Shown piece after piece: positions 529-22,367 of a stretch of DNA of 64,000 bases. Location: NCBI GenBank assembly GCA_037142615.1, contig JBAXAI010000001.1:288001-352000 (forward strand), given 5' to 3'. The notes under the pieces were generated by a model. It saw nothing but the letters and a program-made list of their open reading frames with translations. It did not search any database and was not told the origin of the DNA. Origin of the DNA: Spirochaetales bacterium. Its GTDB lineage: Bacteria; Spirochaetota; Spirochaetia; JABEVK01. The position numbers and the translations under genes are program-made. Numbering within the stretch: position 1 is the stretch's first letter; every line of letters begins with the position of its first letter.

Positions 529-1185
529 TTGTCCCCGGCTCCCGGACTTTCTCCCGTCACGATAACCAGGCGGGAGCTTTGGGGGCCGGAGACTTGGCTT
601 GTGCGTTGGACTCGCAACTGGCCGTTTCGCGCGGGGCAGGTGGTCTCGCTGGCTCTGGTCGAGGGTGGGCCTCAACGTATGTACAGCCTGGCGACCGGGT
701 CCGGGCAGGGCGAGGCCGGTATCTTGTTCAACCGCGTGGAAGCCGGAGAACTCACTCCCTCGATGGCCGAACTGGAACCTGGAGCCACAGTTTGGGTGAG
801 CGAGCCCTTTGGGAGTTTCCCCGGAAGCGCAGGTCCTGCGGTGTGGATTGCCACCGGTACCGGTGTGGCACCCTTCCTTTCGATGGTTTTGTCCGGACTC
901 GGCGCAGGCAAAACTCTCATTCACGGAGCACGAACTCTTGATTCCTTTTACGGACAGGATCTCCTGGCAGAACACTTGGGAACTGGTTATGTGCGCTGTT
1001 GCACGACAGAAGCCGCCCCAGGGGTATTCTCGGGACGCCTGACCCGCTATCTTGAAGCCCAACCGTGGACCGCCGATCGACCTTACCTCCTGTGCGGGAG
1101 CGCTCCCATGATCGTCGATGTCCGGGAAATCCTTTTTCGCAAAGGTGTTCCTTTCCGGTCAATTCTGGCGGAGGTCTTCTTTTGA
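529..1185 (+). CDS. Ferredoxin/flavodoxin-NADP+ reductase-like FAD/NAD(P)-binding oxidoreductase (paralog 1, coupled to rlmN)
   Basis: RMYSL (RxYS FAD motif), PFG, IATGTGVAPF, HGAR, LLCGS.PM, aromatic C-terminus EVFF; TTG start 2 nt after glgC stop. Confidence 0.9.
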   Translation: MSPAPGLSPVTITRRELWGPETWLVRWTRNWPFRAGQVVSLALVEGGPQRMYSLATGSGQGEAGILFNRVEAGELTPSMAELEPGATVWVSEPFGSFPGSAGPAVWIATGTGVAPFLSMVLSGLGAGKTLIHGARTLDSFYGQDLLAEHLGTGYVRCCTTEAAPGVFSGRLTRYLEAQPWTADRPYLLCGSAPMIVDVREILFRKGVPFRSILAEVFF

Positions 1186-2225
1186 GTGTTCTTCTTCCTG
1201 TGCTCTACGGAAAAACTCTGGGCGAACTGCGTGAAATTGCCAAGACTCTTGACGCGCCGGCCCATACGGGTAACCAACTGGCTTCCTGGCTCTACCAAAA
1301 GAGCGCGTCGTCGTTCGATTCCATGACCGACCTGCCCAAAGTTTTGAGGCAGCGGCTTGCCGAGAGTTATTCGTTGGGACTCGTGGCACCCTCGCGGGTC
1401 GACTCTTCCGTGGATGGCACCAAGAAGTATCTTTTTCCCGTGGCGGGAAAGTTTGTCGAAGCCGCTTACATCCCGGATTCTGACCGCAAGACTCTTTGCC
1501 TGAGTTCCCAGGTTGGTTGCAAGATGGGCTGTCTGTTTTGCATGACCGCGAGGCAGGGCTTTCAGGCCCACCTCACCGCGGCCGAGATTCTCAACCAGAT
1601 CCGCAGTCTTCCTGAACGCGAAGAACTGACGAACATCGTCTACATGGGGATGGGAGAACCTCTCGACAATCTGGAAAACACCTTGGCCAGTCTTGAGATT
1701 CTTACCTCGGACTGGGGCCTGGGGTTCGGAAACCAAAAAGTCACCGTGTCTTCAATCGGTATGCTTCCCGCGCTGCAGACTTTCTTCGAACGCACGAAAG
1801 TCCGGTTTGCTCTGTCACTTCATTCGCCGTTCGACGAGGAGCGAAGACAATTGATGCCGGTGCAGTTGGTTCACCCGTTGGCGTCGGTGCTCGAGTACCT
1901 CAAGGTCGCTCAGGAGCAGGATGCCCGGCGTCTGTCGGTAGAGTACATTTGCTTTGCCGGGGTCAACGATAGCGCCCGCCACGTCAAGGAATTGGTCCGC
2001 ATTCTTCATGGTCTGAAGATCCGAATCAACCTGATCCGGTTTCACCCGATTCCAGAGACTCCCCTGGTGGGCTCCGACGAGCGGGCCATGGTTCGCATGC
2101 GAGACGCTCTGATTGAAAAGGGCCTACAGGCGACCATCCGCAAGTCCCGTGGCCAAGATATCTACGCGGCCTGCGGCATGCTGTCGACCAAAGCCCTGCT
2201 CAAGCCGACCGCTACCGACTACTGA
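1182..2225 (+). CDS. rlmN: Dual-specificity 23S rRNA A2503/tRNA A37 C2 methyltransferase (radical SAM)
   Basis: DGTKKYLF, CLSSQVGCKMGCLFC, MGMGEP, SLH, DIYAACG; TTG at 1182 overlaps the upstream TGA (TTGA). Confidence 0.95.
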   Translation: MSVLLPVLYGKTLGELREIAKTLDAPAHTGNQLASWLYQKSASSFDSMTDLPKVLRQRLAESYSLGLVAPSRVDSSVDGTKKYLFPVAGKFVEAAYIPDSDRKTLCLSSQVGCKMGCLFCMTARQGFQAHLTAAEILNQIRSLPEREELTNIVYMGMGEPLDNLENTLASLEILTSDWGLGFGNQKVTVSSIGMLPALQTFFERTKVRFALSLHSPFDEERRQLMPVQLVHPLASVLEYLKVAQEQDARRLSVEYICFAGVNDSARHVKELVRILHGLKIRINLIRFHPIPETPLVGSDERAMVRMRDALIEKGLQATIRKSRGQDIYAACGMLSTKALLKPTATDY

Positions 2226-2857
2226 TCTCCCCAGCCACGAACCCAAAGGGGGCGTCCGTTTTCGGAGGTCCGCACGAAACCGACCCGCTTCAGGTAGGCT
2301 TCATGGGCCTTGACCCGGGTTTCGGCGACGAACTTGCCGTTCTTCTCCCAGTCCAGTTCCCGGACGCCTTCGTTGAAGAAGAACCTCGCGGTCTGAAAAT
2401 CTCTCCAGGCGGGAATCGCATAGTCCAAGAGTATCCGCTGTGTGTCGCCTTCTTTCCTGCATACAAAGAGTGACACCGGAAGTACTTCCCTGAGCAGGAA
2501 AATGACCCGGCTACCCTTGAGGTCTTCGGCGGTAAACTCGGGCTGAAACCTGAGAATATCCTGCGAATGATGGGCAAGGAATTGACCTAGCAGGGCGTCA
2601 GACTCGGGAAACTTCACCTCGAGCAGCGAGAAATTGTCCTTCTGACGGGCCAACTGCACGAGGTAGTAGGTGTTGATCACCACGATGAAGGCATTGAGGC
2701 CGAAGACCGGCCAGGACTGGATCAGCAGCCCGTAGACCGAAAAGAACAGCGCCCCGACCAAGTTGACCGTCCGCAACCAGCGGAGATTCTTCATGGTCAG
2801 AGAAATGGCCACCACGACCGAACTGAAGGTCCCGAGAATCTCGATGTAGGGGTTCAT
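2219..2857 (-). CDS. YgjV-like inner-membrane protein with soluble C-terminal domain
   Basis: N-terminal hydrophobic helices SLTMKNLRWLR.VNLVG..FF..YG; C-terminal LDY.IP..RDF motif; GGAGG upstream of ATG 2857. Confidence 0.7.
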   Translation of the reverse strand: MNPYIEILGTFSSVVVAISLTMKNLRWLRTVNLVGALFFSVYGLLIQSWPVFGLNAFIVVINTYYLVQLARQKDNFSLLEVKFPESDALLGQFLAHHSQDILRFQPEFTAEDLKGSRVIFLLREVLPVSLFVCRKEGDTQRILLDYAIPAWRDFQTARFFFNEGVRELDWEKNGKFVAETRVKAHEAYLKRVGFVRTSENGRPLWVRGWGDQ

Positions 2858-2895
2858 GGACAAGCCTCCAAAGTTTCAGTATAAGGGGAATCACA

Positions 2896-3825
2896 ATGAC
2901 CTGGACAACCTTTTTCAAGATCGTCGAACTGCGAACCAAAATCGTCAGTGTGTCAACTTTCCTCTTGGCAACCCTTTCAACTGCGTGGTTGTACGGCGAA
3001 CTTCCTTGGGTCCTGGTGGTCTTCTTGCTTCTCGCCGTCTTGGCCATCGACATGGGAACAACGGCGTTCAACTCTTTTTTTGACTTTGAAAAGGGCGTTG
3101 ACACGTCGGGAACCAACCAGGAATCGGACAAAGTTCTGGTTCATCAAAGGATTCCCACGGGCTATGCGCTACTGACCGCACTGGCACTATTTGCATTTGC
3201 CGCCGTTCTCGGACTGTTCTTGGCCTTGTGGAAGGGCTGGCCGCTGCTCGTTCTCGGCGGGCTGAGCCTGCTTGTCGGCTATCGGTATTCCGGGGGGAGG
3301 GTTCCTATCAGTTCCACTCCCTGGGGTGAGGCCTTTGCCGGCTTCTTTCTGGGCTCGGTGCTTTGGCTCGTTGTTTCCTTCACGCTGGCACCCGCCGGAA
3401 CACCCTCGCCGGTCTGGGATCCCCAATTCTGGGGGCTTCACTTTCTGCACAGCTTGCCCTCACTCCTGTTCATCGCGAGCATCCTAACTGTGAACAACTG
3501 CTGCGATCGCGAAGGGGACTCGGCAGCCGGACGAAAAACACTGTCGCTTCTTCTGGGACCACCAGCAGATCTCCTGATCGTGCTTCTACCCCTGGCGGCC
3601 TACGTGCTGACAATCGCGCTTTCGCTGGGAGGCCTTCTTCCGTTTCCGCTGGCGTTCAGTTCGCTCGCAGGCCTGCTGTTCACGGTTCCCCTTTGGCGGG
3701 GCATGTTCCAACGTGGCTTCTCGCACCAGACAAAGGGACCCAACATGGGGGCAGTCTCCCAGACCTTCCTCGCCTATACCCTATTTTCAACCCTCGGCTG
3801 GGTTGCGGGTCTGCTGCTCCGTTGA
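2896..3825 (+). CDS. menA: UbiA-family prenyltransferase, MenA-like (DHNA polyprenyltransferase)
   Basis: Multi-TM; NSFFDFEKGVD and NNCCDREGD..AGRKTL Asp-rich motifs; YSGG..P....PWGE. Confidence 0.8.
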   Translation: MTWTTFFKIVELRTKIVSVSTFLLATLSTAWLYGELPWVLVVFLLLAVLAIDMGTTAFNSFFDFEKGVDTSGTNQESDKVLVHQRIPTGYALLTALALFAFAAVLGLFLALWKGWPLLVLGGLSLLVGYRYSGGRVPISSTPWGEAFAGFFLGSVLWLVVSFTLAPAGTPSPVWDPQFWGLHFLHSLPSLLFIASILTVNNCCDREGDSAAGRKTLSLLLGPPADLLIVLLPLAAYVLTIALSLGGLLPFPLAFSSLAGLLFTVPLWRGMFQRGFSHQTKGPNMGAVSQTFLAYTLFSTLGWVAGLLLR

Positions 3826-4511
3826 AGCGGGGTTGTTTTCTTCTCAGTCTGGCGCTGGCCTTTCCGATGGCGGCCGAAGTGCCGGTGCCCGCGGCGCTTG
3901 AAACCGCTCATTTGCTCGGCAAGGGGCGTCCAGCCGGAGCACCCCCTGTGTCTCTTCAGGATGAACTGTTCGTTCTCGCGATGGGAAGCAACAACCAAAT
4001 GGGCTATCTGGAGCGAGTCTCGATGCCTGGTGAGTCCTGGCTGTTTCGGGCTCGTGTTGTCGATCTCGTCGATGACAGCTTGATTTGGGAACAAATCTGG
4101 GTCACCGACGAGGAAATTGACCGCTGGTGGCCTGAGCAGGGGGGGGGCGTCATGCGGTCACTGAAAAGCCATCACCTGGAACCGGTCGATTTTCAGATGG
4201 GTGAGTTTCCGGTGATTCTCGACGACCAATTCTATACGGCAACCTTGCGTCGTACGGCGTCTGCCTCTGACCCGGCCTTGTTCGGGCGTCTCGAGGTCGT
4301 CGTACAGTCAACTGGCCAGGGAATCAAGACCGTCTGCGACCTGTCGGGGGCCTGGCGGTGGGCTTCCGTACTCGGGTTTATCCCTTCGCCTTTCGAGAAC
4401 CGTCTGGCTATTATTCTGCTCGTTCAGCCGGAAGGTTGGAGCGGTCCACAGCAACCTCTGAGGTTCCTTGTCGCCGGGGCCAGTCTCAAGGCCGGTTTTG
4501 CCCAGCCTTGA
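3822..4511 (+). CDS. Hypothetical exported protein
   Basis: TTG overlapping menA stop (TTGA); MKRGCFLLSLALAFPMAA signal-peptide-like N-terminus. Confidence 0.7.
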   Translation: MKRGCFLLSLALAFPMAAEVPVPAALETAHLLGKGRPAGAPPVSLQDELFVLAMGSNNQMGYLERVSMPGESWLFRARVVDLVDDSLIWEQIWVTDEEIDRWWPEQGGGVMRSLKSHHLEPVDFQMGEFPVILDDQFYTATLRRTASASDPALFGRLEVVVQSTGQGIKTVCDLSGAWRWASVLGFIPSPFENRLAIILLVQPEGWSGPQQPLRFLVAGASLKAGFAQP

Positions 4512-4557
4512 CGGAAGCCCCCGATACGCCGTTTAATACGCACTAAAGAGGGTATCC

Positions 4558-6003
4558 TTGGGGCTTCTCGCCGTTTCCGAAAATCTCCAGTATAGGCGTC
4601 TCATAGAGAGCCTCGAGAATGAGCTCGCCTTGTCGCGGGGCAAGATCGACAAGTTGACCCAGAAGCTCGAGGTCAACGAAGATACCGGCTTGCCCAACGC
4701 CGTGGTCATGAACCGCGAAATGGAAGGACTTCTCAAGGCGACTCCCGATTCGAAGGCCGTTCTCTTCCTGTCGTTGACCGACCAGTACACCACGCTCAAG
4801 CGAACCTCGCCGAGCAAGCCCCAGTGGATTCTCTTCAACACCGCAATCCGCATCATGACCGTCGTCGCCGAGCACGGTCGGGTCTACCACACCCGCGAAG
4901 AAGAGTTTCTGATTCTTCTGGAAGACTTGCACGACCCCGTCGCTGTGACGCAATTGGCCTCCGAAATCGTGAAGCAGGTGAAGGAAGCCTACGTGCTCAA
5001 CGGGCAGACGATTTCTCTTGGCGTCAACATTGGGATCGCACTCTACCCCGAACAAGGTGAAAGCAAGTCCATTCTGCTGCGGCACGCCGACATCGCCCTC
5101 AGCGAGTCGATCAAGAACAAGAGCATGTACCAGCTCTTCACGCCCGAACTGCGGGACCGAATGATCGAAAAAGATGAGCTGCAGAAAAAGATCCTCAAAG
5201 CGCTCGAAGTGAACAACTCCGATGAGCGCCCCCAACTGATGTTGTACTTCCAACCCCAAGTCGAGATCCGCAACTGGAACACACCAGAAGTACAGGGCAG
5301 GGTGGTCGGCGCGGAAGTGCTCATCCGTTGGAATCACCCGACTGACGGCTTCATCCCACCCGGAAAGTTCATTCCGGTAGCCGAAGAGACGGGCTTGATT
5401 GTCCACATGGGCACCTGGATTCTGCACACGGCCATCAGCTGCCTCCAGGATCTGGCCCTGCAGGGGTATGGCACCATCACGGTTTCGGTCAACATTTCCA
5501 GCGTGCAGATGAACATGGACGACTTTATACCCCGCATGAAAGAGATCGTTCGCCGCCTCAAGACTGCCGACCATCCCATGAAACTGGAGCTCACTGAAAG
5601 CGGCATGGTGAACATCGAAGACACCATCAAGAAGATCGGTGACATGAAAGAGATGGGCTTTAAGATTCTGCTCGATGACTTCGGCACCGGTTACTCGTCG
5701 CTCAGTTACCTCAAGGATCTGCCGATCGACGTCGTCAAGATCGACAAGTCTTTTGTCGATGGGGTACCTGCCGGTGAAAAAGATACCGCCATGACTCGCA
5801 CTATCATCACTTTGGCGAAGGAACTCCGGAAAGACATCATTGTGGAGGGCACCGAACACCGAGAGCAGATCGACTGGCTCTTCGATCATGGTTGCACGGT
5901 CTATCAGGGCTACTACTTCAGCAAGCCCTTGCCCTATAGCGACTTTGTTCAGTACCTCAAGAACTTCCCTGCCATCTTTGAAGAGAAATCCCGACCCAAC
6001 TAG
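4558..6003 (+). CDS. c-di-GMP phosphodiesterase: degenerate GGDEF + EAL domain
   Basis: TGLPN, degenerate YHTREEEF in place of RxGGDEF; EAL motifs FQP, EVLIRW, SVNIS, LELTE, LDDFGTGYSS, KIDKSF, EGTE, QGYY. Confidence 0.9.
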   Translation: MGLLAVSENLQYRRLIESLENELALSRGKIDKLTQKLEVNEDTGLPNAVVMNREMEGLLKATPDSKAVLFLSLTDQYTTLKRTSPSKPQWILFNTAIRIMTVVAEHGRVYHTREEEFLILLEDLHDPVAVTQLASEIVKQVKEAYVLNGQTISLGVNIGIALYPEQGESKSILLRHADIALSESIKNKSMYQLFTPELRDRMIEKDELQKKILKALEVNNSDERPQLMLYFQPQVEIRNWNTPEVQGRVVGAEVLIRWNHPTDGFIPPGKFIPVAEETGLIVHMGTWILHTAISCLQDLALQGYGTITVSVNISSVQMNMDDFIPRMKEIVRRLKTADHPMKLELTESGMVNIEDTIKKIGDMKEMGFKILLDDFGTGYSSLSYLKDLPIDVVKIDKSFVDGVPAGEKDTAMTRTIITLAKELRKDIIVEGTEHREQIDWLFDHGCTVYQGYYFSKPLPYSDFVQYLKNFPAIFEEKSRPN

Positions 6004-6944
6004 CTTTTGATTTCGTGGCTTTCGGGTATCAATCGGTGCGCCTCGTCATGATGGCTCTGGGTTTCCAGATGAGTTGTGACTACCGCATCGGGAAAGACCG
6101 CCACCAGTTCGCCTTCAATCTTGGTGGCGATGTCATGGGCCTCGACGAGCAGGACACGGTCATCAAAAATCAGATGAAACTGAAACCAATAGCGACTGCC
6201 AGAGTTTCGTGTCCGTAATTCGTGCATTGAGACCCCATGGGTCTGACACAACTTCGCCAGGAGTGTCTCGATCTTAGTCTCTTCGGCCTCGGGAACCGTG
6301 TCCATGAGACCCCGGAACGAGCGGTTGACCAGGCTCAAGCCTTCCTTGAGGATGTTGAGCGCCGCCAGAATAGCGAAGATCGGGTCGAAGTACAGACTGC
6401 TGAACCAAGGATTCTGGGCAAACATGCAAAGGAGCAACCCGATCAGAACGCCAAGTGAAGTCACGCTGTCCGTCAGAACGTGACGGCCGTTGGCTTCTAC
6501 GATCAGCGAGGAGTTCTTTTTGCCGAAGAAGATCAACGACAGGCCCAGAGCGCCGTTGATCACAACCACCAGTGCCGAAATGGCCGTGCCGAGCCCCAGT
6601 TCCTGGATAGTGGGACCCGCAATGATCTTCTTGACTGCTTCCATGATGATATAGCCTGCAGCCAGAATGATCATGGCCCCCTCAAACCCGGCCGAAAAGA
6701 AAGTGATCCGGTCGTAGCCAAACTGATGGGACTTATCGGAGCGCTTGCGGGCCAGGCGCAGGCTCCAGGCGGCGAAGGTGACCGCCACGACATGCACAAC
6801 GGATTCTGCGGCGTCCGAAAGTATCGCGGCCGACCCGGTGATCACCGTGGCGTAGCTCTTGATCGCCAGCATGAAGAAGCCCGTAACCAGTGAAATGTTC
6901 ATCATCAGGTCGAGTTGCTTGTCTTTGGCCATTTGCGCAGTCAT
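6000..6944 (-). CDS. Cation diffusion facilitator (FieF-like) transporter
   Basis: SAAILSDAAESVVH, HQFGYDR, H.LTD, FDP motifs and His-rich tail; ATG 6944 overlaps rarA stop (ATGA). Confidence 0.9.
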   Translation of the reverse strand: MTAQMAKDKQLDLMMNISLVTGFFMLAIKSYATVITGSAAILSDAAESVVHVVAVTFAAWSLRLARKRSDKSHQFGYDRITFFSAGFEGAMIILAAGYIIMEAVKKIIAGPTIQELGLGTAISALVVVINGALGLSLIFFGKKNSSLIVEANGRHVLTDSVTSLGVLIGLLLCMFAQNPWFSSLYFDPIFAILAALNILKEGLSLVNRSFRGLMDTVPEAEETKIETLLAKLCQTHGVSMHELRTRNSGSRYWFQFHLIFDDRVLLVEAHDIATKIEGELVAVFPDAVVTTHLETQSHHDEAHRLIPESHEIKS

Positions 6945-9088: not shown

Positions 9089-9094
9089 AAAAAA

Positions 9095-9123
9095 AGTGTA
9101 CTCGGTCTTTTCTTTTTCCACAA
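9095..9123 (-). promoter_or_regulatory. Putative sigma70 promoter of rarA (leaderless)
   Basis: TTGTGG-N17-TACACT-N6-GTG on minus strand; no Shine-Dalgarno. Confidence 0.55.
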
Positions 9124-9161
9124 ATGTCCTAGGATTAAATACGCATGCGAGGAGTGACACT

Positions 9162-11381: not shown

Positions 11382-11383
11382 CC

Positions 11384-11417: not shown

Positions 11418-11432
11418 CTATTTTTGACGGCT

Positions 11433-12089
11433 ATGACCGTCAGCCAAGCAACCAACCGCGTTCTGGGCGTTGAACGACTGGCGCCCGGGATTTTTGTCCT
11501 GCGCTTTGAAAGAAAGGGCCTGAAGTTCGAGACAGGGCAATACCTGAGCTTGGGACTGCCAGGGCTGCGGAAAGAGCGCGAATACTCGATTTACTCCGGC
11601 GAAGCGGACCCTGAACTGAGCGTGCTTGTGAAAGAAGTTCCTTCCGGCGAAATATCCCCCCAACTTGCCAAGTTGAAGCCCGGCGACGCCTTGAACGTGT
11701 CGGGGCCGTTCGGCTATTTCCTGCTACGGCCCACCATCGGCCCCGGGTATCCATTGCTGTGGATCGCTACCGGAACCGGAATTTCGCCTTTCCGCTCCTT
11801 CGCAAGGTCCTTGCCCGAAACAGATTACGTGTTGTTGCACGGCACGAGAAGTCTGGAGGAAACCGTGCTTTCGTCGGGCTTTGCTCGCAGTCAAACGGTA
11901 TCCTGCGTTTCAGGCAGCCCAGGGGGTACCTACCATGGGCGGGTAACCGGGTATCTTTCGACCATGGAGCTTTCACCCCTAACCAGAGTCTTCCTCTGTG
12001 GGAACTGCGACATGATCTATGACGCCTTCGACTTGTTGCAGGCCAAAGGGATTCCGGCAGGCCAGATCTTCACCGAAGTGTATTACTAG
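11433..12089 (+). CDS. Ferredoxin/flavodoxin-NADP+ reductase-like oxidoreductase (paralog 2, coupled to miaB)
   Basis: REYSI, GPFG, IATGTGISPF, HGTR, FLCGN.DM, C-terminus EVYY. Confidence 0.9.
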   Translation: MTVSQATNRVLGVERLAPGIFVLRFERKGLKFETGQYLSLGLPGLRKEREYSIYSGEADPELSVLVKEVPSGEISPQLAKLKPGDALNVSGPFGYFLLRPTIGPGYPLLWIATGTGISPFRSFARSLPETDYVLLHGTRSLEETVLSSGFARSQTVSCVSGSPGGTYHGRVTGYLSTMELSPLTRVFLCGNCDMIYDAFDLLQAKGIPAGQIFTEVYY

Positions 12090-12096
12090 GAGCCTC

Positions 12097-13410
12097 ATGA
12101 AGTACTACATCCTGAATCTGGGCTGCCAGATGAACCAGGCCGACTCGGAGCGCATTCAGTCGGTATTGGAAACCATGGGGCTCCAGAAGACCGACGACGA
12201 GGCCCAAGCTTCCGTTCTTGGCCTGGTCGCCTGTTCCGTGCGTCAGAAAGCGATCGACCGGGTCCACACCAAGATCCACGAATGGAACGAACGCAAGGCG
12301 CAAGAAAACGTCGTGACCTTTCTTTCGGGCTGCGTACTACCAGCGGATGAAGACGCTTTTCTGAAGAAGTTCGACCTGATGTTCTCGATTGCCGACCTCG
12401 GCAAGTTGCCGGAACTCCTGAGGGGGCACGGAATCGTAACGCCCCTGAGTCAGACCTTGCCCGCTGGCAACGGTCTGGATCACTTCTGGAACGTGGTTCC
12501 CCAGTATTCCAGCACCTTCGAAGCGTATGTCCCCATTCAAAACGGGTGCGACAAGTTCTGTACGTTCTGCGCCGTTCCCTACACCCGAGGCCGTGAGGTC
12601 TCGCGGCCTTCAGCAGCCATCCTGCAAGAGGTGAGGGACCTTGTCGACAAGGGATTCAAAAGTATTACCCTGCTGGGACAAAACGTGAACAGCTATGGCC
12701 TCGACAAGCCCGGTGAAGAACTTTCGTTCGTCAATCTGCTGACCCAGATCGGCGAATACGGTCGTTCAACCGGCCGGGAGTTCTGGGTCTACTTCACTTC
12801 GCCGCATCCCCGAGATATGGGAACCGATATCCTCGAGGCCATCCGGGACTTTCCGGTACTCGCAAAACATATTCACTTGCCCTTGCAGTCGGGTGATGAC
12901 AAGGTTCTGATCCGGATGAACCGCAATCATTCGATGGACCGTTACCGATCTCTCGTCGGCACCTTGCGCGAACTACTCCCGGAGGCGACGCTGGTTACCG
13001 ACATCATCGTAGGCTTCACAGGAGAGTCAGTCGAACAGTTCGAGAATACACGGTTGGCGATGCGGGAGTTTGGCTACCAAATGGCTTTTGTCGCTGCCTA
13101 CAGCCCACGACCCGGCGCGGCCTCGGCCCGCTGGAACGACGATGTTCCTCTGGGCGAGAAGAAGCGTCGCTTGCAAGTTTTGACCGAAGAGCTTCACCTG
13201 AGCTCGCTGGAGTTTAACCGCAAGCTTTTGGGAAGAAACCTTCGGGTGCTCGTGGAACGCCAAGACAAGAAGGCCGGCTATTTGGCCGCAAGAACCGAGG
13301 GCAAGATCCCGATCCGGTTTGCTTCTTCCGATCTTTCACTCATCGGATCCTTCGTGTCGGTTGTCGTTGAGTCGGTGGTTCCCCTTTCGATAGAGGGCAG
13401 ACTCGTCTGA
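12097..13410 (+). CDS. miaB: tRNA-2-methylthio-N6-dimethylallyladenosine synthase (radical SAM methylthiotransferase)
   Basis: GCQMN, ACSVRQKA, SGC; CDKFCTFC; LLGQNVNSYG; TDIIVGF; TRAM C-terminus; AGGAG RBS overlapping the upstream TAG. Confidence 0.93.
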   Translation: MKYYILNLGCQMNQADSERIQSVLETMGLQKTDDEAQASVLGLVACSVRQKAIDRVHTKIHEWNERKAQENVVTFLSGCVLPADEDAFLKKFDLMFSIADLGKLPELLRGHGIVTPLSQTLPAGNGLDHFWNVVPQYSSTFEAYVPIQNGCDKFCTFCAVPYTRGREVSRPSAAILQEVRDLVDKGFKSITLLGQNVNSYGLDKPGEELSFVNLLTQIGEYGRSTGREFWVYFTSPHPRDMGTDILEAIRDFPVLAKHIHLPLQSGDDKVLIRMNRNHSMDRYRSLVGTLRELLPEATLVTDIIVGFTGESVEQFENTRLAMREFGYQMAFVAAYSPRPGAASARWNDDVPLGEKKRRLQVLTEELHLSSLEFNRKLLGRNLRVLVERQDKKAGYLAARTEGKIPIRFASSDLSLIGSFVSVVVESVVPLSIEGRLV

Positions 13411-13461
13411 AAACAGGGTTGTTTCCTCAACGGTTGGCACTAGAATGAAAGGGGGGACGAA

Positions 13462-14607
13462 ATGGCGGAGAACGAACATCCCAGGATTCTCGTGGTCGAT
13501 GACGTTGCTGCAAACGTGGCTATGGTGGGAGCCGTCTTGAGGGCCGAGGGCTTTCTGGTCAGCGGTGCGCAGGGAGCGGTCGAGGCGATGGAAGTCCTAC
13601 AGAGTCAGAGCGTTGATTTGATCCTGCTCGACGTGATGATGCCGGTAACGAACGGGTTCGATTTTTCTCGGCGCCTCCACGCAATGCCGGAGACCGCCGA
13701 TCTTCCTGTAATCTTCCTGTCGGCGCTGTCGAATGAGCACGAGATTGTTCAGGGCTTTGAGGCGGGCGGCGTCGACTATGTCTCCAAGCCGTTTCATAAG
13801 CAGGAACTCTTGTCGCGGGTGCGTACCCATTTGACACTTCGGAAGGCACGCCAGGACCTCAAGGAGCAGAACCTCGTGCTGGCCCGCACGTCGCGTGAAC
13901 TGAAGGAATCCAATCTGGCCCGGGACAAGTTCCTTTCGATCCTCGCACACGACCTGAGGAACCCTTTTGCTGGAATCATGTCTTTGCAAGGTGAAATCCG
14001 CGACAATCTGGAAACCTTCAGTGCCGGGGAACTTCGCTCGGCGGTAGATGCCATCCAGACCTCGACGCAGGCTATCTATAACCTACTCACTACGCTCCTT
14101 GAGTGGGGCAAGGCCCAGACCGGCGTAGCCGTCTTTCAGTTTTCTTCCTTTTCCGTCAGTTCGGCGGTCGAGCAGGCCTTGGCGCCCCTTCAGTCGATGC
14201 TGGCACTCAAGGAACTCACCCTCCGCGTGGAAGTGGGGGCAACTCAGGTGTGGGCCGAACTGGCAAGCGTGGTTTCGATCATTCGAAATCTGCTTTCCAA
14301 CGCGGTGAAGTTTACCAAACGAAGTGGGCTGATCACCGTCGTTGCCCGAACAGAGGGCGACCAAACTGTGATAGAAGTGAAGGACACGGGGTTAGGCATG
14401 ACGCCCGAAATGCAGGATCAACTCTTCCGGCTCGACGTGAAGGTATCGACTCTCGGTACCGAAAAAGAGTCCGGGACGGGCCTGGGGCTCCTGCTGTGCA
14501 GGGAGTTTGCGGACCGAAACAGCGGGAGTCTGGATGTGGAGAGCGTATCGGGAGTAGGAACGGTCTTCCGGCTGAGACTTCCCTCCAACAAGGATGGTGG
14601 AACATGA
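13462..14607 (+). CDS. Hybrid response regulator receiver-histidine kinase
   Basis: ILVVDD, LLDVMMP, KPF receiver; AHDLRNP H-box; [20 protein letters not shown]. Confidence 0.93.
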
Positions 14608-16385: not shown

Positions 16386-17302
16386 TCAAGGTTAAGTCCT
16401 CGCGTGGAGACAAGGAGTACCTGATTGCCAGAGCGCGCGACAGGATGACGCAGTTTCTGATCGCGGATGGCACAGTTCGAGGAACCTGGGTTCAGGCCAA
16501 TCTGGTGCTGGAGGAAATGGCCCTCAACCATGCACTGGGCCCCTTTGAGACGCTCATTCTCGGACAGGCTTATGTTGCAGCATTGCTGATCTCGTCGACT
16601 CTGAAAGGGGAGGACCGTTTCCACCTGAGCATTTCGGTAGACGGCCCCGTGCGTGGATTCTCCGTTGAAGCCAACGCGTTCGGCGCGGTAAGGGGCTACC
16701 TGCTCGAGAATCCGATCAGGATTCCTGCCGAGTGGGGCGAAGCCACTTTGGCGCAGGTTTTGGGAAACGGGTCACTAACGGTGACCAGATACCTCGAGAA
16801 GAACACCCAACCCATGATGGGCACTGTCGAGTACCTTCCCAACTCGCTGGCCGAAAGTCTTGCCTACTACTATCAACAGTCCGAGCAGACCTCGACTGCC
16901 TTCTTGCTAAGTCTTCCTTTTGATCGGGAAGGCCACCTGCTCGGAGCCGGCGGGTTGATGCTGCAGGCGATGCCCGGGGTGAAGGCGGAGGTTTGGGACT
17001 CCATGGTGAGCCGGTTGAGTACTTTGCCCAGCGTTGGCGAAAACGCTGCCGAAAGTCACGATCCGTCGGCCCTGCTCCAATTTTGGTTTTCGGACGCTCA
17101 CCCTCAGATCCTTGACTCGAAACGTGTCGAGTTCTTTTGTCAGTGTTCCAAGGACAGGTTCTCTCAGGTGATGAAAACCTTGCCTGCGGACGACAGGGAA
17201 GAGATCCTCTCCCAAGGGCCTTTCCCGATGGAAACTAAATGCCACCACTGCAATTCTGCTTACTGGTTCAAGAAGACTGAGCTGGAGCAACTGTGGGCCT
17301 GA
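16382..17302 (+). CDS. hslO: Hsp33 redox-regulated chaperone
   Basis: YY.QSEQ, GGLMLQ.MP, C-terminal CQC...CHHC zinc motif. Confidence 0.92.
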
Positions 17303-18288
17303 GCGCGAGGGGACTCTTTCACGTAGCTCCTCTGCAGGTAGAAGTCCGTCCCGTCGAACTTCGGCCTTTGAGCTCTGTGAGTCTGACGCTGAAGACTGAT
17401 TTCTCGGCGATCAGCTCAGGAACAGAGCGCCTTCTTTTCACGGGTCAGTTTCCCGAGGAACTCGAGCTCGATGCTGTGATCCCAGAGCTCCAAAGGGCAA
17501 TCGGCTATCCGTTTGCCTATGGTTATAGCCTTGTGGGACGTTGTGTCGAAGTCGGGACGAAGGTTGACCCGGTACTTCTGGGAAAGAGTTTCTTCGCCTT
17601 TCATCCCCATCAGGACGTCTGCCGTTTGCCGCTGGAGAGGGTCATGCCGGTTCCCGACGAGATTCCCCTGCGAAGGGCGCTGTTTTACCCCTTTCTTGAG
17701 ACCGCAATAACCCTGGTGCTCGACGCGGCGCCTCTCTGGGGTGAACGGGTTGCTGTTTTCGGTCTGGGAACGATAGGACTGCTGGTGACACGTATCTTGA
17801 GCAAGTTCCCACTGGCCAATCTCACGGCTTTTGAGCCACAATCTGCCCGCAGGACCCGTGGACTCGCAGCCGGGGCCTCGGTCTGCCTGTCAGGACCTCA
17901 CGAATCTGGCACCGACAACTTTGACGTGGTGATCGAACTGTCGGGGACACAACAAGGACTGAGCGAGGCTTTCAGGGTCGTTGGCTTTTCGGGCAGGATT
18001 GTTTCAGGGTCTTGGCACGGCCAGTCCCCGGTGGATTCCGGAGCACGAACCGCGTTTCATCGCAAACGGGTCACGCTCATTTCCAGTCAAGTCAGCACAA
18101 TCGCGCCTGCCTTGAGTGCGCGCTGGACCAAGGAACGACGGGCCGCCCAAACTTGGCAACTGCTTGCCATCACGGACTTGGAGTCCGACATCGCGGCTGA
18201 AGTCCCGTTCGAGGATTCCGCTGAAGCGTTCCGTTCACTGATCTCCGGAGCAGCTTCGGGGCAGATCGTTCTGACCTACCCCGAATGA
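17293..18288 (+). CDS. Medium-chain dehydrogenase/reductase (zinc-binding ADH-like family)
   Basis: SAISSGTE, YGYSLVG, FHPHQ, GLGTIG Rossmann motif, FHRKR..LISSQV. Confidence 0.85.
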   Translation: MGLSARGLFHVAPLQVEVRPVELRPLSSVSLTLKTDFSAISSGTERLLFTGQFPEELELDAVIPELQRAIGYPFAYGYSLVGRCVEVGTKVDPVLLGKSFFAFHPHQDVCRLPLERVMPVPDEIPLRRALFYPFLETAITLVLDAAPLWGERVAVFGLGTIGLLVTRILSKFPLANLTAFEPQSARRTRGLAAGASVCLSGPHESGTDNFDVVIELSGTQQGLSEAFRVVGFSGRIVSGSWHGQSPVDSGARTAFHRKRVTLISSQVSTIAPALSARWTKERRAAQTWQLLAITDLESDIAAEVPFEDSAEAFRSLISGAASGQIVLTYPE

Positions 18289-18292
18289 CCTG

Positions 18293-19642
18293 CTAACGGA
18301 GTTCGTTCACAACGTCGACGACCGACTTAGGCGCCAACGTTGTGGTTTTTCCAGCAACGACGGTGACCTTGGCCTCAACAGCGACGGGACCCGCTTCGAG
18401 CCGGATCTTATAGGTTCCTTGGGGGAGGCCCAGAAGTAAAGGCTTGTCTTTCTGTTCCACATCGTTCACGAAGACCCTTACCAAGCGCTGATTAGCGGCC
18501 TGGATCCAACCATCGGTCTTGATTTGGATGGTTCCAAGCTCGGGTATCAGGCCAACGCTGATCGAGGTCGGATTGGCAGGCATGTCAAACTGCTGGTTAT
18601 ACATCTGGTATCCCAATGCGGTCACAACCAGATTATGGATTCCAGGAGTAACCGAAACCGGGTTTGAAACCACCTGCTGGTTGTCGATCGTGATAAGCGC
18701 ACCAGGGACGTTCACGGCAACATTCAGGGCGAACAAGGCGGGAACCAAAGTGATGTTCAGGATGTTGGGCTGGGCCTGCATCGTGAATTGTAGCGAGTAA
18801 GGTTGGTACCCTGGGGCGGTGACGAGAAGAGTGTGGTTACCTTGGGCAAGGGCGACGGGAAATGCCGGTACCGGTGTATTATCAATCTGCACGTTGGCCC
18901 CGTTCACGTTGGTCCGCACCGTCAACGGAAAGCTGGCCGGCTGAAGCGTCACCGTCATGTTGATGCCGCGGGCACCCATCGAGATATTCTGGGTGAAGGG
19001 CTGAAAACCGGGCGCAGTGACGGTCAAAGTATGGGGCCCAGCGCTGATCATCGAGGGGATGGTGATTGCCGTGTTGTCGACGAGGATTGTGGCTCCGGGT
19101 ACGTTGACGCTGACATTGAGCGGGAATCCAGCGGCCTGCAACGTGACATTGATGGTTTGGGCGCCTGCGGGCATGTTGAACGACTGATTCCACGGGCTGA
19201 AGCCCATCGCAGTTACGGTGAGCGTGTGGTTGCCCGCCGTCAGCGCGACAGGGTTGGAGGCTATGGCCTGGTTGTCAATCAGAATCTGAGCCCCCGGAAC
19301 ATTGACGGCGATACTCAGGGGGAAGGACCTCACCACAGGGGCCGCAGGAAGCACCGGATTGTAGGGTATTGTCGTATCACCGTTGATCTTGGCGTTGACG
19401 GTATTGACCGGCTGCCCAGGGACCAGGAAGCCCAGCACGTGCTGACCAGGCTTGACGTAAACCGTGAACGGGATAGTTCCGGCATCCTGTCCGTCGATGG
19501 TGACCTGCACGTTGGCCAAATTGGATTGAAACTCAAGTTTGAAAAGGCCTAGGGCCTTCTGGGACGAAAAGGCCTGACCGGCCAAGCCAACCGAGCAGAA
19601 CAACACGGTCAGAGCGGCAAGCATCAAAACGGGTTTTTTCAT
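18293..19642 (-). CDS. Exported PEGA-repeat protein
   Basis: Signal peptide MKKPVLMLAAL...; tandem ~65-aa beta repeats FPL.V.VNVPGA.I.IDN...G.HTL.VTAPG; GGAG RBS. Confidence 0.85.
   Translation of the reverse strand: MKKPVLMLAALTVLFCSVGLAGQAFSSQKALGLFKLEFQSNLANVQVTIDGQDAGTIPFTVYVKPGQHVLGFLVPGQPVNTVNAKINGDTTIPYNPVLPAAPVVRSFPLSIAVNVPGAQILIDNQAIASNPVALTAGNHTLTVTAMGFSPWNQSFNMPAGAQTINVTLQAAGFPLNVSVNVPGATILVDNTAITIPSMISAGPHTLTVTAPGFQPFTQNISMGARGINMTVTLQPASFPLTVRTNVNGANVQIDNTPVPAFPVALAQGNHTLLVTAPGYQPYSLQFTMQAQPNILNITLVPALFALNVAVNVPGALITIDNQQVVSNPVSVTPGIHNLVVTALGYQMYNQQFDMPANPTSISVGLIPELGTIQIKTDGWIQAANQRLVRVFVNDVEQKDKPLLLGLPQGTYKIRLEAGPVAVEAKVTVVAGKTTTLAPKSVVDVVNELR
18545..19330 (-). repeat. Four tandem PEGA-like units (approximate bounds)
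   Basis: Repeated peptides FPLSIAVNVPGAQ / FPLNVSVNVPGAT / FPLTVRTNVNGAN / FALNVAVNVPGAL, each followed by GxHxLxVTAxG. Confidence 0.8.
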
Positions 19643-19698
19643 GGACACTCCTTGGACAAACAATTCAGCTTCTTATTATACCTTTGCGGCCGAGAAAA

Positions 19699-20517
19699 TC
19701 AAGGAACAGGAAGTTCAACAGGCCGCAGAGTCCCGGTACCTTTGGAGGTCCAATCAATATTGGAATACCGTGCATACGCCCATTGATCGGCTCGTTCTGT
19801 CTCGGCAGGGCCAAGGTTCGAAGGCTCAAGAAGGATTCCCAGACACAATTCGAGGTTACTGGCCAAGCGATCCCCTAGCGCGTCTGTCGCCTCACGATAG
19901 CCCAGGGAATCCAGATCGGTCACTTTTTCTGGAACCGGGAGAAACTCTGGGGCGAAGAGAGTTCCCAGGGCTGACCAATCCAGTCGGAAAGGGATCGAGC
20001 CGTGCTGGAAAACGAACCCGCGCTCGCGCCTCTGGGCGTTGCCGCCAAGTTTTCGGCCGTCCACAAGAATGTCGTACGCTTCGGTTCCCGCGAAACAGGC
20101 GGGAGTCACAGCGCCAAGACTAGGGGCAGGCCCGAGGTCCTTCGCGAAACCGGCCTCGTAGCCCAATTCCTTCCAAGTAGCGAGAAGGAAACCGCACAGG
20201 CGCTCATAAGTCGCCTTGACCCCGGAGGTGTCCAAGTCCTCGGCGCGAAACCCCAGACTATAGGTCAATTCCCGGTCGTGCCAGATGGCGCCGCCTCCGG
20301 TACTGCGCCGAACGACCGGAAACCGGTCGAGCACTCCCGGCAATAATCCCGTCGAGGTGTTCTGAAACCGCCCCAGCGAGAGGCAGGCAGGTTCCCAAGT
20401 GTAGAGGCGAAAAAAGGGTTGGAACTGCCGGGACATCGACTCGAGCAGTGTGTGATCGACCGCCATGTTCCACGCCCCGGAAGCGGAGCCGGAACGCAGG
20501 AAGCGCCATTTCGTCAT
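19699..20517 (-). CDS. Lipoate-protein ligase family, LipM-like octanoyltransferase (catalytic domain only)
   Basis: WNMAVD, RRSTGGGAIWHD, GRKLGGNAQRR, QHGSI; ATGA overlap with gcvH-like gene. Confidence 0.88.
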   Translation of the reverse strand: MTKWRFLRSGSASGAWNMAVDHTLLESMSRQFQPFFRLYTWEPACLSLGRFQNTSTGLLPGVLDRFPVVRRSTGGGAIWHDRELTYSLGFRAEDLDTSGVKATYERLCGFLLATWKELGYEAGFAKDLGPAPSLGAVTPACFAGTEAYDILVDGRKLGGNAQRRERGFVFQHGSIPFRLDWSALGTLFAPEFLPVPEKVTDLDSLGYREATDALGDRLASNLELCLGILLEPSNLGPAETERADQWAYARYSNIDWTSKGTGTLRPVELPVP

Positions 20518-20882
20518 TCCCGATGGACCTTTGCTCTCCAGGCCACCTCGGTAAGGAGGGGTTCGAGGTCTCCTGGAACAACGTTTGCCAGCTCGATGAG
20601 CCATGCCTCACCTTCGGGGTCCTGATTGAGCAGTCCAGGGTTTCCAGACACCGCGGCGTTTACCAAGCGGACGGTTCCCGAGACCGGCGGGTGAAAGTCC
20701 GTGGCTGCCTTTACGGCTTCGATGACTGCTGCGGGGGAGTCGGGAGCAACTCTGGTGCCGACGAGAGGCAACTCTATGAACGTGACGTCGCCAAGATCGC
20801 TGACATTTTCGACGGAAAGTCCGACGCGCCAGCCCGATTCCACGGCTTCGACCCATTCTCCGGAGAGCGAGAAAAGCTTCAT
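20514..20882 (-). CDS. gcvH: Glycine cleavage H-like lipoyl carrier protein (divergent)
   Basis: EWV, LGDVTFIELP, IEAVKAA lipoyl-Lys motif, PVSGTV..VN, LLNQDP...WL. Confidence 0.85.
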   Translation of the reverse strand: MKLFSLSGEWVEAVESGWRVGLSVENVSDLGDVTFIELPLVGTRVAPDSPAAVIEAVKAATDFHPPVSGTVRLVNAAVSGNPGLLNQDPEGEAWLIELANVVPGDLEPLLTEVAWRAKVHRE

Positions 20883-21757
20883 AGGTCTTGTACCTCCGAG
20901 GCACGGTAGGAGCTTCTTACCAGCGGACCCGAAGCGACGTGCCGGAAACCCAGCGAAAGGGCACTTCGCTTCAGCTGAACAAACTCCTCAGGCGTGTAGA
21001 ATTTACGCACCTCGAGGTGATGAACGGTCGGTTGCAAGTACTGCCCCAAGGTCAGGAAATCTGTGCCGACGGTGCGGAGGTCCTTCATTGCCTCCAAAAG
21101 TTCCTCCGTGGATTCACCAAGTCCCACCATCAGGCTGGACTTGGTCTTCAGACCACGGGACTTGTAAAAAGAAAGGCAAGCCAGAGTCTTTTCGTAACCG
21201 GCCCGCACGTCGCGCACAGGATGGGTCAGGCGCCGCACGGTCTCGAGATTCTGGGCGGCGATGTAGGGTTGGCTATCGGCTAGGATCGCCATTCTCGCCG
21301 GATCCGCGCCGAAGTCGGGCACCAAAGCTTCCACTTTTGTCGCAGGGTGTGCCCGGTGCACCGCGTCAATCACGTCGGCAAAATGCTGGGCACCGTGGTC
21401 GGGTAGATCGTCACGGTCGACGCTGGTGATGACCACATGCGACAATCCCATGAAAGTAACCAACTCCACCGTGGATTGCACTTCCCGGGCCTCAACGAGT
21501 CCTGCCGGGTGCCCTGTCTTGACGTGGCAGAAGCGGCAACCCCGGGTGCACGTGTCCCCCAAGATCATGATTGTGGCCGTGTGACTGCTCCAGCATTCGT
21601 TGAGGTTCGGGCATGAAGCTTCGACACAAACGGTGTGTAGTCCCTTTTCCCTCAAATTGGACCTCAGATCGTGAAACTCATCGCTGCGTCTTCCCTGAAC
21701 TTTGAGCCAGTCAGGTTTTCGAAGTTGGGCAAGTTCAGACAAAGAAGCTCTCCTCAT
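20879..21757 (-). CDS. lipA: Lipoyl synthase (radical SAM)
   Basis: KPDWLK, CVEASCPNLNEC (CX4CX5C), CTRGCRFC, TSVDRDDL, GQYLQP, RSSY. Confidence 0.96.
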   Translation of the reverse strand: MRRASLSELAQLRKPDWLKVQGRRSDEFHDLRSNLREKGLHTVCVEASCPNLNECWSSHTATIMILGDTCTRGCRFCHVKTGHPAGLVEAREVQSTVELVTFMGLSHVVITSVDRDDLPDHGAQHFADVIDAVHRAHPATKVEALVPDFGADPARMAILADSQPYIAAQNLETVRRLTHPVRDVRAGYEKTLACLSFYKSRGLKTKSSLMVGLGESTEELLEAMKDLRTVGTDFLTLGQYLQPTVHHLEVRKFYTPEEFVQLKRSALSLGFRHVASGPLVRSSYRASEVQDL

Positions 21758-22367
21758 GGATGCGTGCTGGTTCTATCCCGAGCGTAGCCAATTGCTCGCT
21801 GCAACTCTGGATCATCCGGGGGTTCCCGCAAAGATAATACTGATGACCGGGTCCAATCGGAAAGCTCTCGTTCACACGGATGTGGCGTCGAGGCTCTTCC
21901 CGTGAGAAGTACCACTGAACGTCACATCGACTTTCCAGAAACTCGCTGAAAAGGGCTTCTGCCCGACTTCTGACCCCGAAGTACAGCCTGGGCCTGAAGT
22001 TCGAGGGGCCGCGCAGGCAGGCGACAAATGGCGAAATACCAGTTCCCGTCGCCAGCCAGACCTCGGATTCGGATTGGCCAGGCGCAAACCCGCCAAAGGG
22101 TGTCCCCAAACCTACGAGGTCACCAGGCCTGCGACTAGCCAGCCAGGTACTGAACTGCCCCTCTGACGGGACGGTGGCAGGACTCCGGATCAAGAAGCGA
22201 AGCTCCGACTGCGAAGGGTGGGACGAAAAACTGTAGGGCCTCGAGTCTACCCCGTCGTCGCGAATCAGCAGGGTGCAGTCGCCCGCACGATACTCCAAAC
22301 CCTCCCGGCTCACTACCAGCTCAAAGACCTCGGTTGTCAGCCAATGGGTAGAACGGACAATCGCCAA
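21735..22367 (-). CDS. Ferredoxin/flavodoxin-NADP+ reductase-like oxidoreductase (paralog 3, coupled to lipA)
   Basis: RPYSFSS, PFG, LATGTGISPF, FGVR, YLCGNPRM, EESFFV; overlaps lipA start by 23 nt. Confidence 0.88.
   Translation of the reverse strand: MAIVRSTHWLTTEVFELVVSREGLEYRAGDCTLLIRDDGVDSRPYSFSSHPSQSELRFLIRSPATVPSEGQFSTWLASRRPGDLVGLGTPFGGFAPGQSESEVWLATGTGISPFVACLRGPSNFRPRLYFGVRSRAEALFSEFLESRCDVQWYFSREEPRRHIRVNESFPIGPGHQYYLCGNPRMIQSCSEQLATLGIEPARIHEESFFV

Follow-up and report, generated by a model that had tools for sequence, protein, structure and literature searches.

Small FNR-superfamily reductases encoded with RlmN, MiaB, and LipA: candidate partner-dedicated electron donors to radical-SAM enzymes

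The stretch of DNA analyzed here, hereafter the window, comprises 64,000 nucleotides of a Spirochaetales bacterium (GenBank assembly GCA_037142615.1, contig JBAXAI010000001.1, positions 288,001 to 352,000 of the forward strand) and harbors three small genes of the ferredoxin–NADP reductase (FNR) superfamily, each of which lies directly upstream of a gene for a different radical S-adenosylmethionine (radical-SAM) enzyme, rlmN, miaB, or lipA (Table 1). At the first junction, the TTG start codon of rlmN at 1182 overlaps the TGA stop codon of the reductase (1183–1185) in the tetranucleotide TTGA; at the second, the TAG stop codon of the reductase (12087–12089) lies within a TAGGAG ribosome-binding site, with the stop 8 nucleotides ahead of the miaB ATG at 12097; and at the third, the lipA ATG at 21757 and the reductase stop codon (21735–21737) delimit a 23-nucleotide overlap. 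An alternative TTG start codon at 11424 would extend the miaB-linked reductase to 221 residues, and a database cluster of 218 residues is 100% identical to this protein.

Table 1. Reductase genes, their radical-SAM partners, and the gene 3′ of lipA; coordinates are those of the window.
Feature	Position	Strand	Remark
FNR-family reductase, RlmN-type clade, TTG start	529..1185	+	218 aa
rlmN (rRNA/tRNA adenine C2 methyltransferase), TTG start	1182..2225	+	TIGR00048 match
FNR-family reductase, MiaB-type clade	11433..12089	+	218 aa from ATG 11433
miaB (methylthiotransferase)	12097..13410	+	TIGR00089 372 bits
FNR-family reductase, LipA-type clade, TTG start	21735..22367	-	210 aa
lipA (lipoyl synthase), ATG at 21757	20879..21757	-	TIGR00510 match
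lipoate ligase/octanoyltransferase-family gene, 3′ of lipA, same strand	19699..20604	-	PF21948, PF03099

An earlier note, made from the letters of this DNA alone, had described three paralogous reductases of 210 to 218 residues directly upstream of rlmN, miaB, and lipA, and the open reading frames (ORFs) and family models agree; the three kinds of junction that it listed can be read directly in the sequence. Its statement that these are the only radical-SAM genes in the window holds, with just three PF04055 matches there, and its remark that no flavodoxin or ferredoxin gene adjoins the pairs is borne out by the 10 neighboring ORFs scanned beside them, none of which encodes either carrier. These neighbors are glgC, a UbiA-family gene, chemoreceptors, a hybrid kinase, an MgsA-type ATPase, PpiC, a PmbA/TldD-family gene, the LplA/LipB-family gene after lipA, which is possibly in one operon with lipA, and one ORF with no Pfam match. 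The shared motifs given in the note needed one correction: RxYS and ATGTGxxPF stand as described, and the third motif has three residues, not two, before the methionine (LCGxxxM).

The window reductases are divergent paralogs (29–34% identity among all three; relative to the first copy, 34% for the second and 29% for the third) in which R-x-Y-S (R50, Y52, and S53), A-T-G-T-G-x-x-P-F, and L-C-G-x-x-x-M are invariant. Across 22 RlmN-type members, the R and S of RxYS are invariant and the Y nearly so, and the ATGTGxxPF motif and the LCG triplet are fully conserved. The C-termini of the window copies and of a fourth paralog encoded elsewhere in the genome (see below) read EVFF, EVYY, ESFFV, and EIYF, and a terminal Phe or Tyr is found in 22 of 22 RlmN-type members. 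A C-terminal aromatic residue stacks on the flavin in the FNR superfamily, and this residue in combination with RxYS is typical of tightly bound FAD. PF00175 (NAD_binding_1) is above its cut-off of 22 in all three proteins (22.9–24.9 bits). PF00970 (FAD_binding_6) matches the miaB-linked copy at 39.3 bits (cut-off 21.1), is sub-threshold in the lipA-linked copy, and does not match the rlmN-linked copy, in which the FAD-binding β-barrel is nonetheless visible in the AlphaFold2 (AF2) model.

That model, of high confidence (predicted local distance difference test (pLDDT) 94.1; predicted TM-score (pTM) 0.90), finds its top fold matches in the PDB among bacterial FNR/Fpr structures (1a8p, 6rr3, 3fpk, and 1fdr; TM-score normalized to the query (TMq) 0.84–0.87, 23–25% identity). 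A profile search against the PDB returns BenC reductase (1krh, 5e-30), the Escherichia coli flavodoxin reductase (1fdr, 5e-29), and Fre (1qfj, 2.8e-10); entries 8QQ1, 8QQ5, and 8QT6 correspond to the dehydrogenase domain of a bacterial NADPH oxidase and were set aside as irrelevant. No NCBIfam model reaches its cut-off for the three reductases, the best partial matches being of the BenC, MmoC, Fpr, and PyrK types. The Fpr equivalog NF008178 (PRK10926; cut-off 390) gives 26.1, 58.0, and 29.6 bits, and the Fre/LuxG equivalog NF005963 (cut-off 230) gives 23.5 and 18.1 bits or no match. The window reductases are not Fpr orthologs, although their fold is closest to that of Fpr, and the database names that such proteins carry are only “ferredoxin--NADP reductase,” “FAD-binding oxidoreductase,” and “hypothetical.”

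As for the partner enzymes, the 347-residue RlmN matches TIGR00048 at 320.1 bits (cut-off 290) and carries an invariant CxxxCxxC motif (C113/C117/C120), and LipA matches TIGR00510 at 342.6 bits (cut-off 310.25). The miaB product falls just under the cut-off of the MiaB model TIGR01574 (351.2 versus 355.3 bits), exceeds that of the subfamily model TIGR00089 (372 versus 251), and scores well above the MtaB (257) and RimO (201) models; PF00919 and PF04055 are above their cut-offs, with TRAM at 19.6 versus 21.

Genome-wide, the assembly (4.27 Mb in 76 contigs, 96.7% complete) contains 12 PF04055 matches and four small FNR paralogs. A profile search located the fourth paralog on another contig (C8:71153–71818, minus strand), where it encodes 222 residues with 42% identity to the miaB-linked copy. 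Three of the four paralogs abut three of the 12 PF04055 genes, an adjacency for which a rough estimate (12 radical-SAM genes among ~3800) gives a chance probability of ~1e-6; the remaining FNR-like matches score far lower and lie within open frames of 225–736 residues. The nine unpaired radical-SAM genes encode MoaA, RimO, HemW, NrdG, three glycyl-radical activases, a second RlmN/Cfr-like protein, and MnmL/YtqA, and their genome-wide coordinates place no FNR match near any of them. The second RlmN/Cfr-like gene (C6:124399–125292, minus strand), which also has no adjoining reductase, scores 283 bits with TIGR00048, just under the cut-off, and 240–245 bits with the Cfr models.

All 11 genomes examined from the same family contain small paralogs of this kind, two to four in each, versus only 2 of 19 genomes from other families of the class. 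We examined 38 loci from the relatives' genomes together with the fourth locus of the genome itself (G and L numbers below are our identifiers for genomes and loci). By tblastn, like is paired with like in all four same-genus genomes and in most genomes of genus g2, and one genome, G021, has a lone reductase copy. A maximum likelihood tree of 39 rows, built after removal of three reductase rows that were truncated or masked, resolves LipA-type and RlmN-type clades (support 100/100 each) and places the type represented by the fourth paralog, named for its acyltransferase neighbor (100/99), within the MiaB type. Partner labels change seven times on this tree versus 23.3 times when shuffled. Since close kin are not independent, this tree alone shows only a stable linkage within one family. 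A 616-residue frame around rlmN in G006 was considered as a possible fusion and ruled out; its extra part has no FNR match, and an internal ATG start is available.

The pairing recurs in other phyla. A pattern scan of a species-level collection (one genome per species) returned at least 600 matches, at least 549 of which were confirmed by tblastn, and the best 80 loci were kept. These derive from Spirochaetota, Bacteroidota (Prolixibacteraceae, Marinilabiliaceae, and Bacteroidales metagenome-assembled genomes (MAGs)), SAR324, Kiritimatiellota, Verrucomicrobiota, Planctomycetota, Desulfobacterales, Myxococcota, Ignavibacteriota, and Pseudomonadota. The gene miaB, rlmN, or lipA is found within 300 bp of the reductase in 52 of these best loci, and a different radical-SAM gene adjoins it in five more (an enzyme of ~500 residues in L108, L112, and L123, a SPASM enzyme in L116, and one in L158), so that 57 of the 80, from at least six phyla, have a radical-SAM neighbor. 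In another seven (L135, L146, L148, L153, L155, L156, and L159, from Desulfobacterales, Myxococcota, and others), the reductase lies directly 3′ of a gene for a PduO-type cobalamin adenosyltransferase, and these are all seven members of one clade (Shimodaira–Hasegawa-like approximate likelihood-ratio test (SH-aLRT) 99). Two reductase genes from Kiritimatiellales/Pontiellaceae lie ahead of trhO (UPF0176/rhodanese; L137:3706–4713 and L157:3656–4567), which encodes an oxygen-dependent tRNA U34 hydroxylase. Of the remainder, one precedes an acyltransferase gene, two have rlmN displaced by 0.9–2.2 kb, and 11 have other or unrecognized neighbors.

Gene order varies with lineage. The window's family has reductase–lipA, and Bacteroidota have lipA–reductase, or lipA divergent from reductase–miaB, with many junctions of 1–5 nucleotides. 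The L103 locus (Bacteroidales) combines lipA–reductase with a divergent reductase–miaB pair, and L100 (Prolixibacteraceae) combines reductase–rlmN with a divergent reductase–miaB pair. In a cross-phylum tree of 116 rows (six were dropped for a length outside of 190–260 residues or an X in the sequence), the RlmN-type clade (SH-aLRT 99) brings together members from Spirochaetota, Bacteroidota, and Planctomycetota, with rlmN as the neighbor in 23 of its 32 rows. The window's LipA-type clade groups with Kiritimatiellota and Verrucomicrobiota members (SH-aLRT 99), and the lipA-linked reductases of Bacteroidota fall far from it, within a MiaB-type super-clade; these two separate lipA-linked clades with different gene orders indicate at least two origins of the lipA link. 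FNR-linked RlmNs from across phyla are 50–73% identical to the window RlmN, whereas 14 of 17 unlinked RlmNs of the same class reach only 30–37%. Linked MiaBs show 51–79% identity (the 51–53% values come from three Spirochaetales MAGs) versus 32–36% for the best matches in most of the class, and LipA shows no such split between linked and unlinked sequences. From these sequence comparisons, the rlmN and miaB pairs look like a cassette that was inherited or transferred together.

Several of these loci depart from the simple arrangement. The linked miaB of two Spirochaetia MAGs (L090:3627–5195 and L121:3663–5246) matches in two pieces 180–380 nucleotides apart, reflecting an insertion, a frameshift, or an assembly error, and the reductase of L134 (3001–3644) is divided between two reading frames close to the end of a contig. 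An ORF of 236–252 residues with a signal-peptide-like start follows the RlmN-type reductase in L126, L132, L133, L139, L143, L144, and L147, all from Prolixibacteraceae and Bacteroidales MAGs; the L126 ORF has a weak sub-threshold LolA_like match. In L139, rlmN follows after 0.9 kb, a spacing suggestive of insertion into an ancestral reductase–rlmN pair, and in L138, it is found 2.2 kb downstream behind opposite-strand ORFs.

Reductase and radical-SAM enzyme are also found in one polypeptide. Three natural proteins of 668–669 residues (P0129–P0131) begin with a radical-SAM/SPASM enzyme that contains a CxxxCxxC motif and end with a reductase 40–43% identical to the window's miaB-linked copy, and their precomputed Pfam lists contain no carrier domain. 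A search for longer relatives returned no RlmN–reductase fusion, which is weak evidence. In L116, these two parts are encoded by neighboring genes, with an unannotated ORF of 369 residues after them.

These findings bear on whether the genes are functionally linked at all, as opposed to kept together by inherited gene order or by a hitch-hiking cassette. Many of the rows are close kin, the FNR-linked RlmN and MiaB proteins look like cross-phylum subfamilies such that a cassette may simply have spread, and tight spacing is general in this genome, as the glgC junction described below illustrates. However, three different enzyme families are linked alike, the lipA link is present in two clades with two gene orders, fusions exist, and the radical-SAM neighbors noted above recur in 57 of the best 80 loci and at least six phyla. 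We regard this already disfavored explanation as extremely improbable and consider a functional partnership of the reductase family with radical-SAM enzymes to be very likely.

To visualize how such partners might meet, we modeled one cognate pair, RlmN and the rlmN-linked reductase, as a complex with the 4Fe–4S cluster and FAD, using 22-row alignments matched by genome. The ipSAE interface scores are 0.85, 0.85, and 0.82, against 0.18 for the best of three controls; the partner pLDDT is 92, and the runs share at least 92% of their contacts. Of 80 solved complexes, 58 attain the mark applied to ipSAE, as do 2 of 110 mismatched pairs; this calibration fits only roughly here because we used our own alignments and riding ligands. 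On the RlmN side, the modeled interface comprises residues 113–118 and 123–127 (the loop of C113/C117/C120), 218–232, and 292–295; on the reductase side, it comprises residue 51 (in RxYS), 94–97, 157–159, 170–172, 191–216, and the terminal aromatic residue 218. The interface as modeled is chemically sensible, with the flavin face on the CxxxCxxC cluster loop, and it occupies what we take to be the face where FNRs bind ferredoxin or flavodoxin. We know of no solved FNR–radical-SAM complex that the model could have memorized.

These observations lead us to propose that the three genes would encode minimal two-domain flavoproteins of the FNR superfamily with the bacterial Fpr fold, each coexpressed with and dedicated to one radical-SAM enzyme. 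In this proposal, NAD(P)H would reduce the bound FAD, the exposed flavin edge of the reductase would dock on the surface loop that carries the CxxxCxxC 4Fe–4S cluster, and single electrons would pass from the reductase to the cluster and drive reductive SAM cleavage, so that flavodoxin or ferredoxin would be bypassed or at least unnecessary. What the data show is the gene pairing and its conservation, clades specific to each partner, the fold with its cofactor motifs, natural fusions, and a confident model of the interface; binding of FAD and NAD(P)H, electron transfer with its direction and acceptor, and the lack of a carrier are inferred. Each SAM cleavage by these enzymes consumes one low-potential electron, and an NAD(P)H:flavin module encoded next to them is readily seen as their electron source; that the reductase supplies the activating electron is in our judgment probable. 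The adenosyltransferase-linked clade, a candidate cob(II)alamin reductase, lends support to electron supply because cobalamin adenosyltransferase is a classical client of low-potential flavoprotein reductants, flavodoxin/Fpr among them. Whether electrons would pass directly, with no carrier, is evenly balanced in our assessment, the case for it being made by the fusions, the partner-specific clades, and the one complex model. Taken as a whole, partner-dedicated NAD(P)H reductases that activate radical-SAM enzymes, perhaps carrier-free, represent our preferred and somewhat probable reading. More tentatively, the proteins may form a widespread unnamed family of one-component, partner-specific NAD(P)H:radical-SAM reductases that dock on the cluster loop and bypass flavodoxin and ferredoxin, with sister clades that play the corresponding role in cob(II)alamin adenosylation and for TrhO.

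The earlier note had proposed a private reductase for each enzyme and looked to reductase clades that follow their radical-SAM partner, which are seen in both the 39-row and 116-row trees; to conservation of the pairing in related genomes, which was found together with recurrence in other phyla; to FNR paralogs that are not scattered at random, as the adjacency of three of four to three of 12 radical-SAM genes confirms; and to models of cognate complexes, of which the RlmN pair passes its controls. Its interpretation is supported, with two qualifications: the family also has non-radical-SAM neighbors, and the flavodoxin, small ferredoxin, and PFOR (pyruvate:ferredoxin oxidoreductase) encoded in the genome leave room for a carrier-mediated route.

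A more conventional explanation is that these are ordinary ferredoxin/flavodoxin–NAD(P)H reductases that feed a shared carrier, with operon linkage serving only to coregulate supply with demand. The fold and best sequence matches are indeed those of Fpr-type flavodoxin/ferredoxin reductases, and the genome has one gene each for flavodoxin and a small ferredoxin (an ORF of 55 residues with two 4Fe–4S motifs), in addition to PFOR. Moreover, the relevant passages of PMC10470005 report that Thermotoga maritima MiaB is activated by a ferredoxin and an FNR of the same organism. This explanation nevertheless leaves long-lived paralog clades, each tied to one client across phyla, unaccounted for; the fusions have no carrier domain in their precomputed Pfam lists, the model puts the client on the face that serves FNRs as their carrier-binding site, and no carrier gene is present among the inspected ORFs beside the pairs, where not every neighbor is annotated. 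We consider it unlikely, although it retains appreciable weight. The presence of flavodoxin, ferredoxin, and PFOR does mean that private reductases coexist with a conventional low-potential system and are not substitutes for it. Replacement of flavodoxin by the reductases was considered and ruled out, in that G000, G002, G005, G006, and G021 have PF00258 above cut-off.

The reductases might instead service clusters, by rebuilding the sacrificial auxiliary clusters of LipA and MiaB, repairing oxidized clusters, or assembling clusters, and have no role in activating SAM cleavage. LipA and MiaB consume an auxiliary cluster, and some family members have suggestive neighbors: in genus g2, the fourth type of reductase precedes not an acyltransferase gene but a SufU/NifU_N scaffold gene in two genomes (L066:3254–3688 in G008 and L073:3232–3666 in G010) or an unannotated 439-residue ORF, and an aconitase-family gene adjoins the reductase in L083. 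Yet RlmN is not known to have an auxiliary cluster, and the RlmN-type clade is the most coherent; RimO, a close relative of MiaB, has no adjoining reductase; and the modeled interface is the radical-SAM cluster loop, although repair of that very cluster would still fit. Such a role strikes us as quite improbable.

The proteins could also be Fre-like NAD(P)H:flavin reductases that release free reduced flavin, which would then reduce nearby metallocofactors without any specific complex. Their very small size (210–220 residues) would suit this, and NADPH with free FMN can activate the radical-SAM enzyme PapB, as described in the pertinent part of PMC10470005. The adenosyltransferase-linked clade would be in keeping with such a mechanism, given that corrinoid adenosylation can be driven by free dihydroflavins. 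On the other hand, the profile matches Fpr at 5e-29 and E. coli Fre only at 2.8e-10, RxYS and the C-terminal aromatic residue are conserved, and partner-specific clades, fusions, and a confident interface would be needless for a diffusible reductant. We judge this explanation very unlikely.

A number of observations weigh against the preferred reading of partner-dedicated reductases. The family is not exclusive to radical-SAM enzymes and is found beside SufU, TrhO, acyltransferase, adenosyltransferase, and aconitase-family genes. The fourth paralog has a non-radical-SAM partner, a PlsC-type acyltransferase gene (PF01553) whose start overlaps the reductase stop codon, and this pairing is kept in four of five genomes of the genus, the present one included, and was not found in G001; we know of no redox need of a PlsC-type acyltransferase. 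Genera g3 and g4 retain a LipA-type copy that is not beside lipA, and in G009, the RlmN-type copy is not beside rlmN. Upstream of the rlmN-linked reductase, the 3′ end of glgC (26–526 of the window, plus strand) has its stop codon just 2 nucleotides ahead, and close spacing therefore carries little weight by itself in this genome. The carriers encoded in the genome make a conventional carrier route available, and among five other genomes with the reductases, PF00258 is above cut-off in four and sub-threshold in G015. Electron transfer would be uphill, as it also is for Fpr/flavodoxin, since most radical-SAM clusters are more strongly reducing than either NAD(P)H or FAD bound to an FNR. As for the complex, the rough fit of the ipSAE calibration counts on this side, as does a comparison of 22 linked with 17 unlinked same-class RlmNs, which revealed no enrichment of interface co-evolution: consensus residues differ at 12 of the 25 positions in the interface and at 143 of the 271 outside of it. 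K114, L118, D162, and L295 of the RlmN interface are invariant in the linked group only, a pattern confounded by the linked group being the closer subfamily. Finally, the reading draws on sequence, gene context, and models.

The glgC–reductase order is also found in G009 (L070), where rlmN is located elsewhere. Four metatranscriptome runs from one study contain just 7–10% of sampled words, and the resulting contigs span only positions 400–619 of the window; they bridge the glgC/reductase junction, do not cover the reductase–rlmN junction, and form the basis for no conclusion.

The in vivo reduction of radical-SAM enzymes is described as “enigmatic” in the relevant section of PMC10470005, which also questions Fpr/flavodoxin as the general physiological system. 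Comparative genomics here yields named, testable reductant candidates for three universal enzymes, RlmN, MiaB, and LipA, and the candidates are carried by cultured Draconibacterium, Maribellus, Sunxiuqinia, Alkaliflexus, Breznakibacter, and Pontiella. Partner-dedicated reductases would offer a modular, “private reductase” answer to this long-open question. A direct route, if real, would moreover provide a simple NAD(P)H-driven means of activation for in vitro and heterologous radical-SAM work, a structural model of reductant docking on the cluster loop, and a functional name for hundreds of proteins with generic reductase labels. Open-access and bioRxiv full text returned no description of such a pairing or fusion; subscription journals and supplements could hold one.

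Among known systems, the closest parallel in presumed purpose, an activating electron from NAD(P)H, is E. coli Fpr/FldA, in which electrons pass from NADPH via FAD and FMN to the radical-SAM cluster and whose reductase shares superfamily and fold with the window proteins (1fdr; TMq 0.87, 5e-29). Fpr is a single shared enzyme of 248 residues that is encoded apart from its clients and needs flavodoxin, whereas the window's genome has three to four paralogs of 210–222 residues, each encoded with one client, that score 26–58 bits against the Fpr equivalog cut-off of 390 and, in the model, place the client on the flavin face. Fpr/flavodoxin is the standard in vitro reducing system for radical-SAM enzymes according to the corresponding passages of PMC10470005. 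The T. maritima ferredoxin and ferredoxin–NADP oxidoreductase, which support MiaB (Arcinas et al. 2019, as cited in PMC10470005), resemble the proposed system in the FNR-type entry of NADPH electrons to MiaB and differ in their interchangeable ferredoxin carriers; gene linkage and partner-specific paralogs are not stated in the relevant passages of PMC10470005. BenC and the phthalate dioxygenase reductase type, which include the best sequence match (1krh, 5e-30), have an FNR flavin that passes electrons directly to a docked iron–sulfur cluster, as proposed for the window reductases. Their acceptor is a fused plant-type 2Fe–2S ferredoxin domain that serves an oxygenase, whereas from the window reductases, which lack a ferredoxin domain, electrons would go to the catalytic 4Fe–4S cluster of a separate radical-SAM enzyme. 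In diphthamide synthesis, the FNR-superfamily reductase Cbr1 (NADH–cytochrome b5 reductase) feeds the SAM-cleaving iron–sulfur enzyme Dph1/Dph2 by a dedicated route. This eukaryotic route relies on a carrier, the small iron protein Dph3, and its radical-SAM client is noncanonical. The flavin module of eukaryotic TYW1 is flavodoxin-like, binds FMN, and needs an upstream reductase, in contrast to the predicted NAD(P)H-oxidizing FNR module described here. TYW1, a radical-SAM tRNA-modifying enzyme with a fused flavin-binding domain (PMC8941971), parallels the 668-residue fusions in having an electron-entry flavoprotein module of its own. An FNR-type reductase that feeds an iron–sulfur enzyme is thus known, and what would be new is an FNR-type reductase as a partner-dedicated radical-SAM module.

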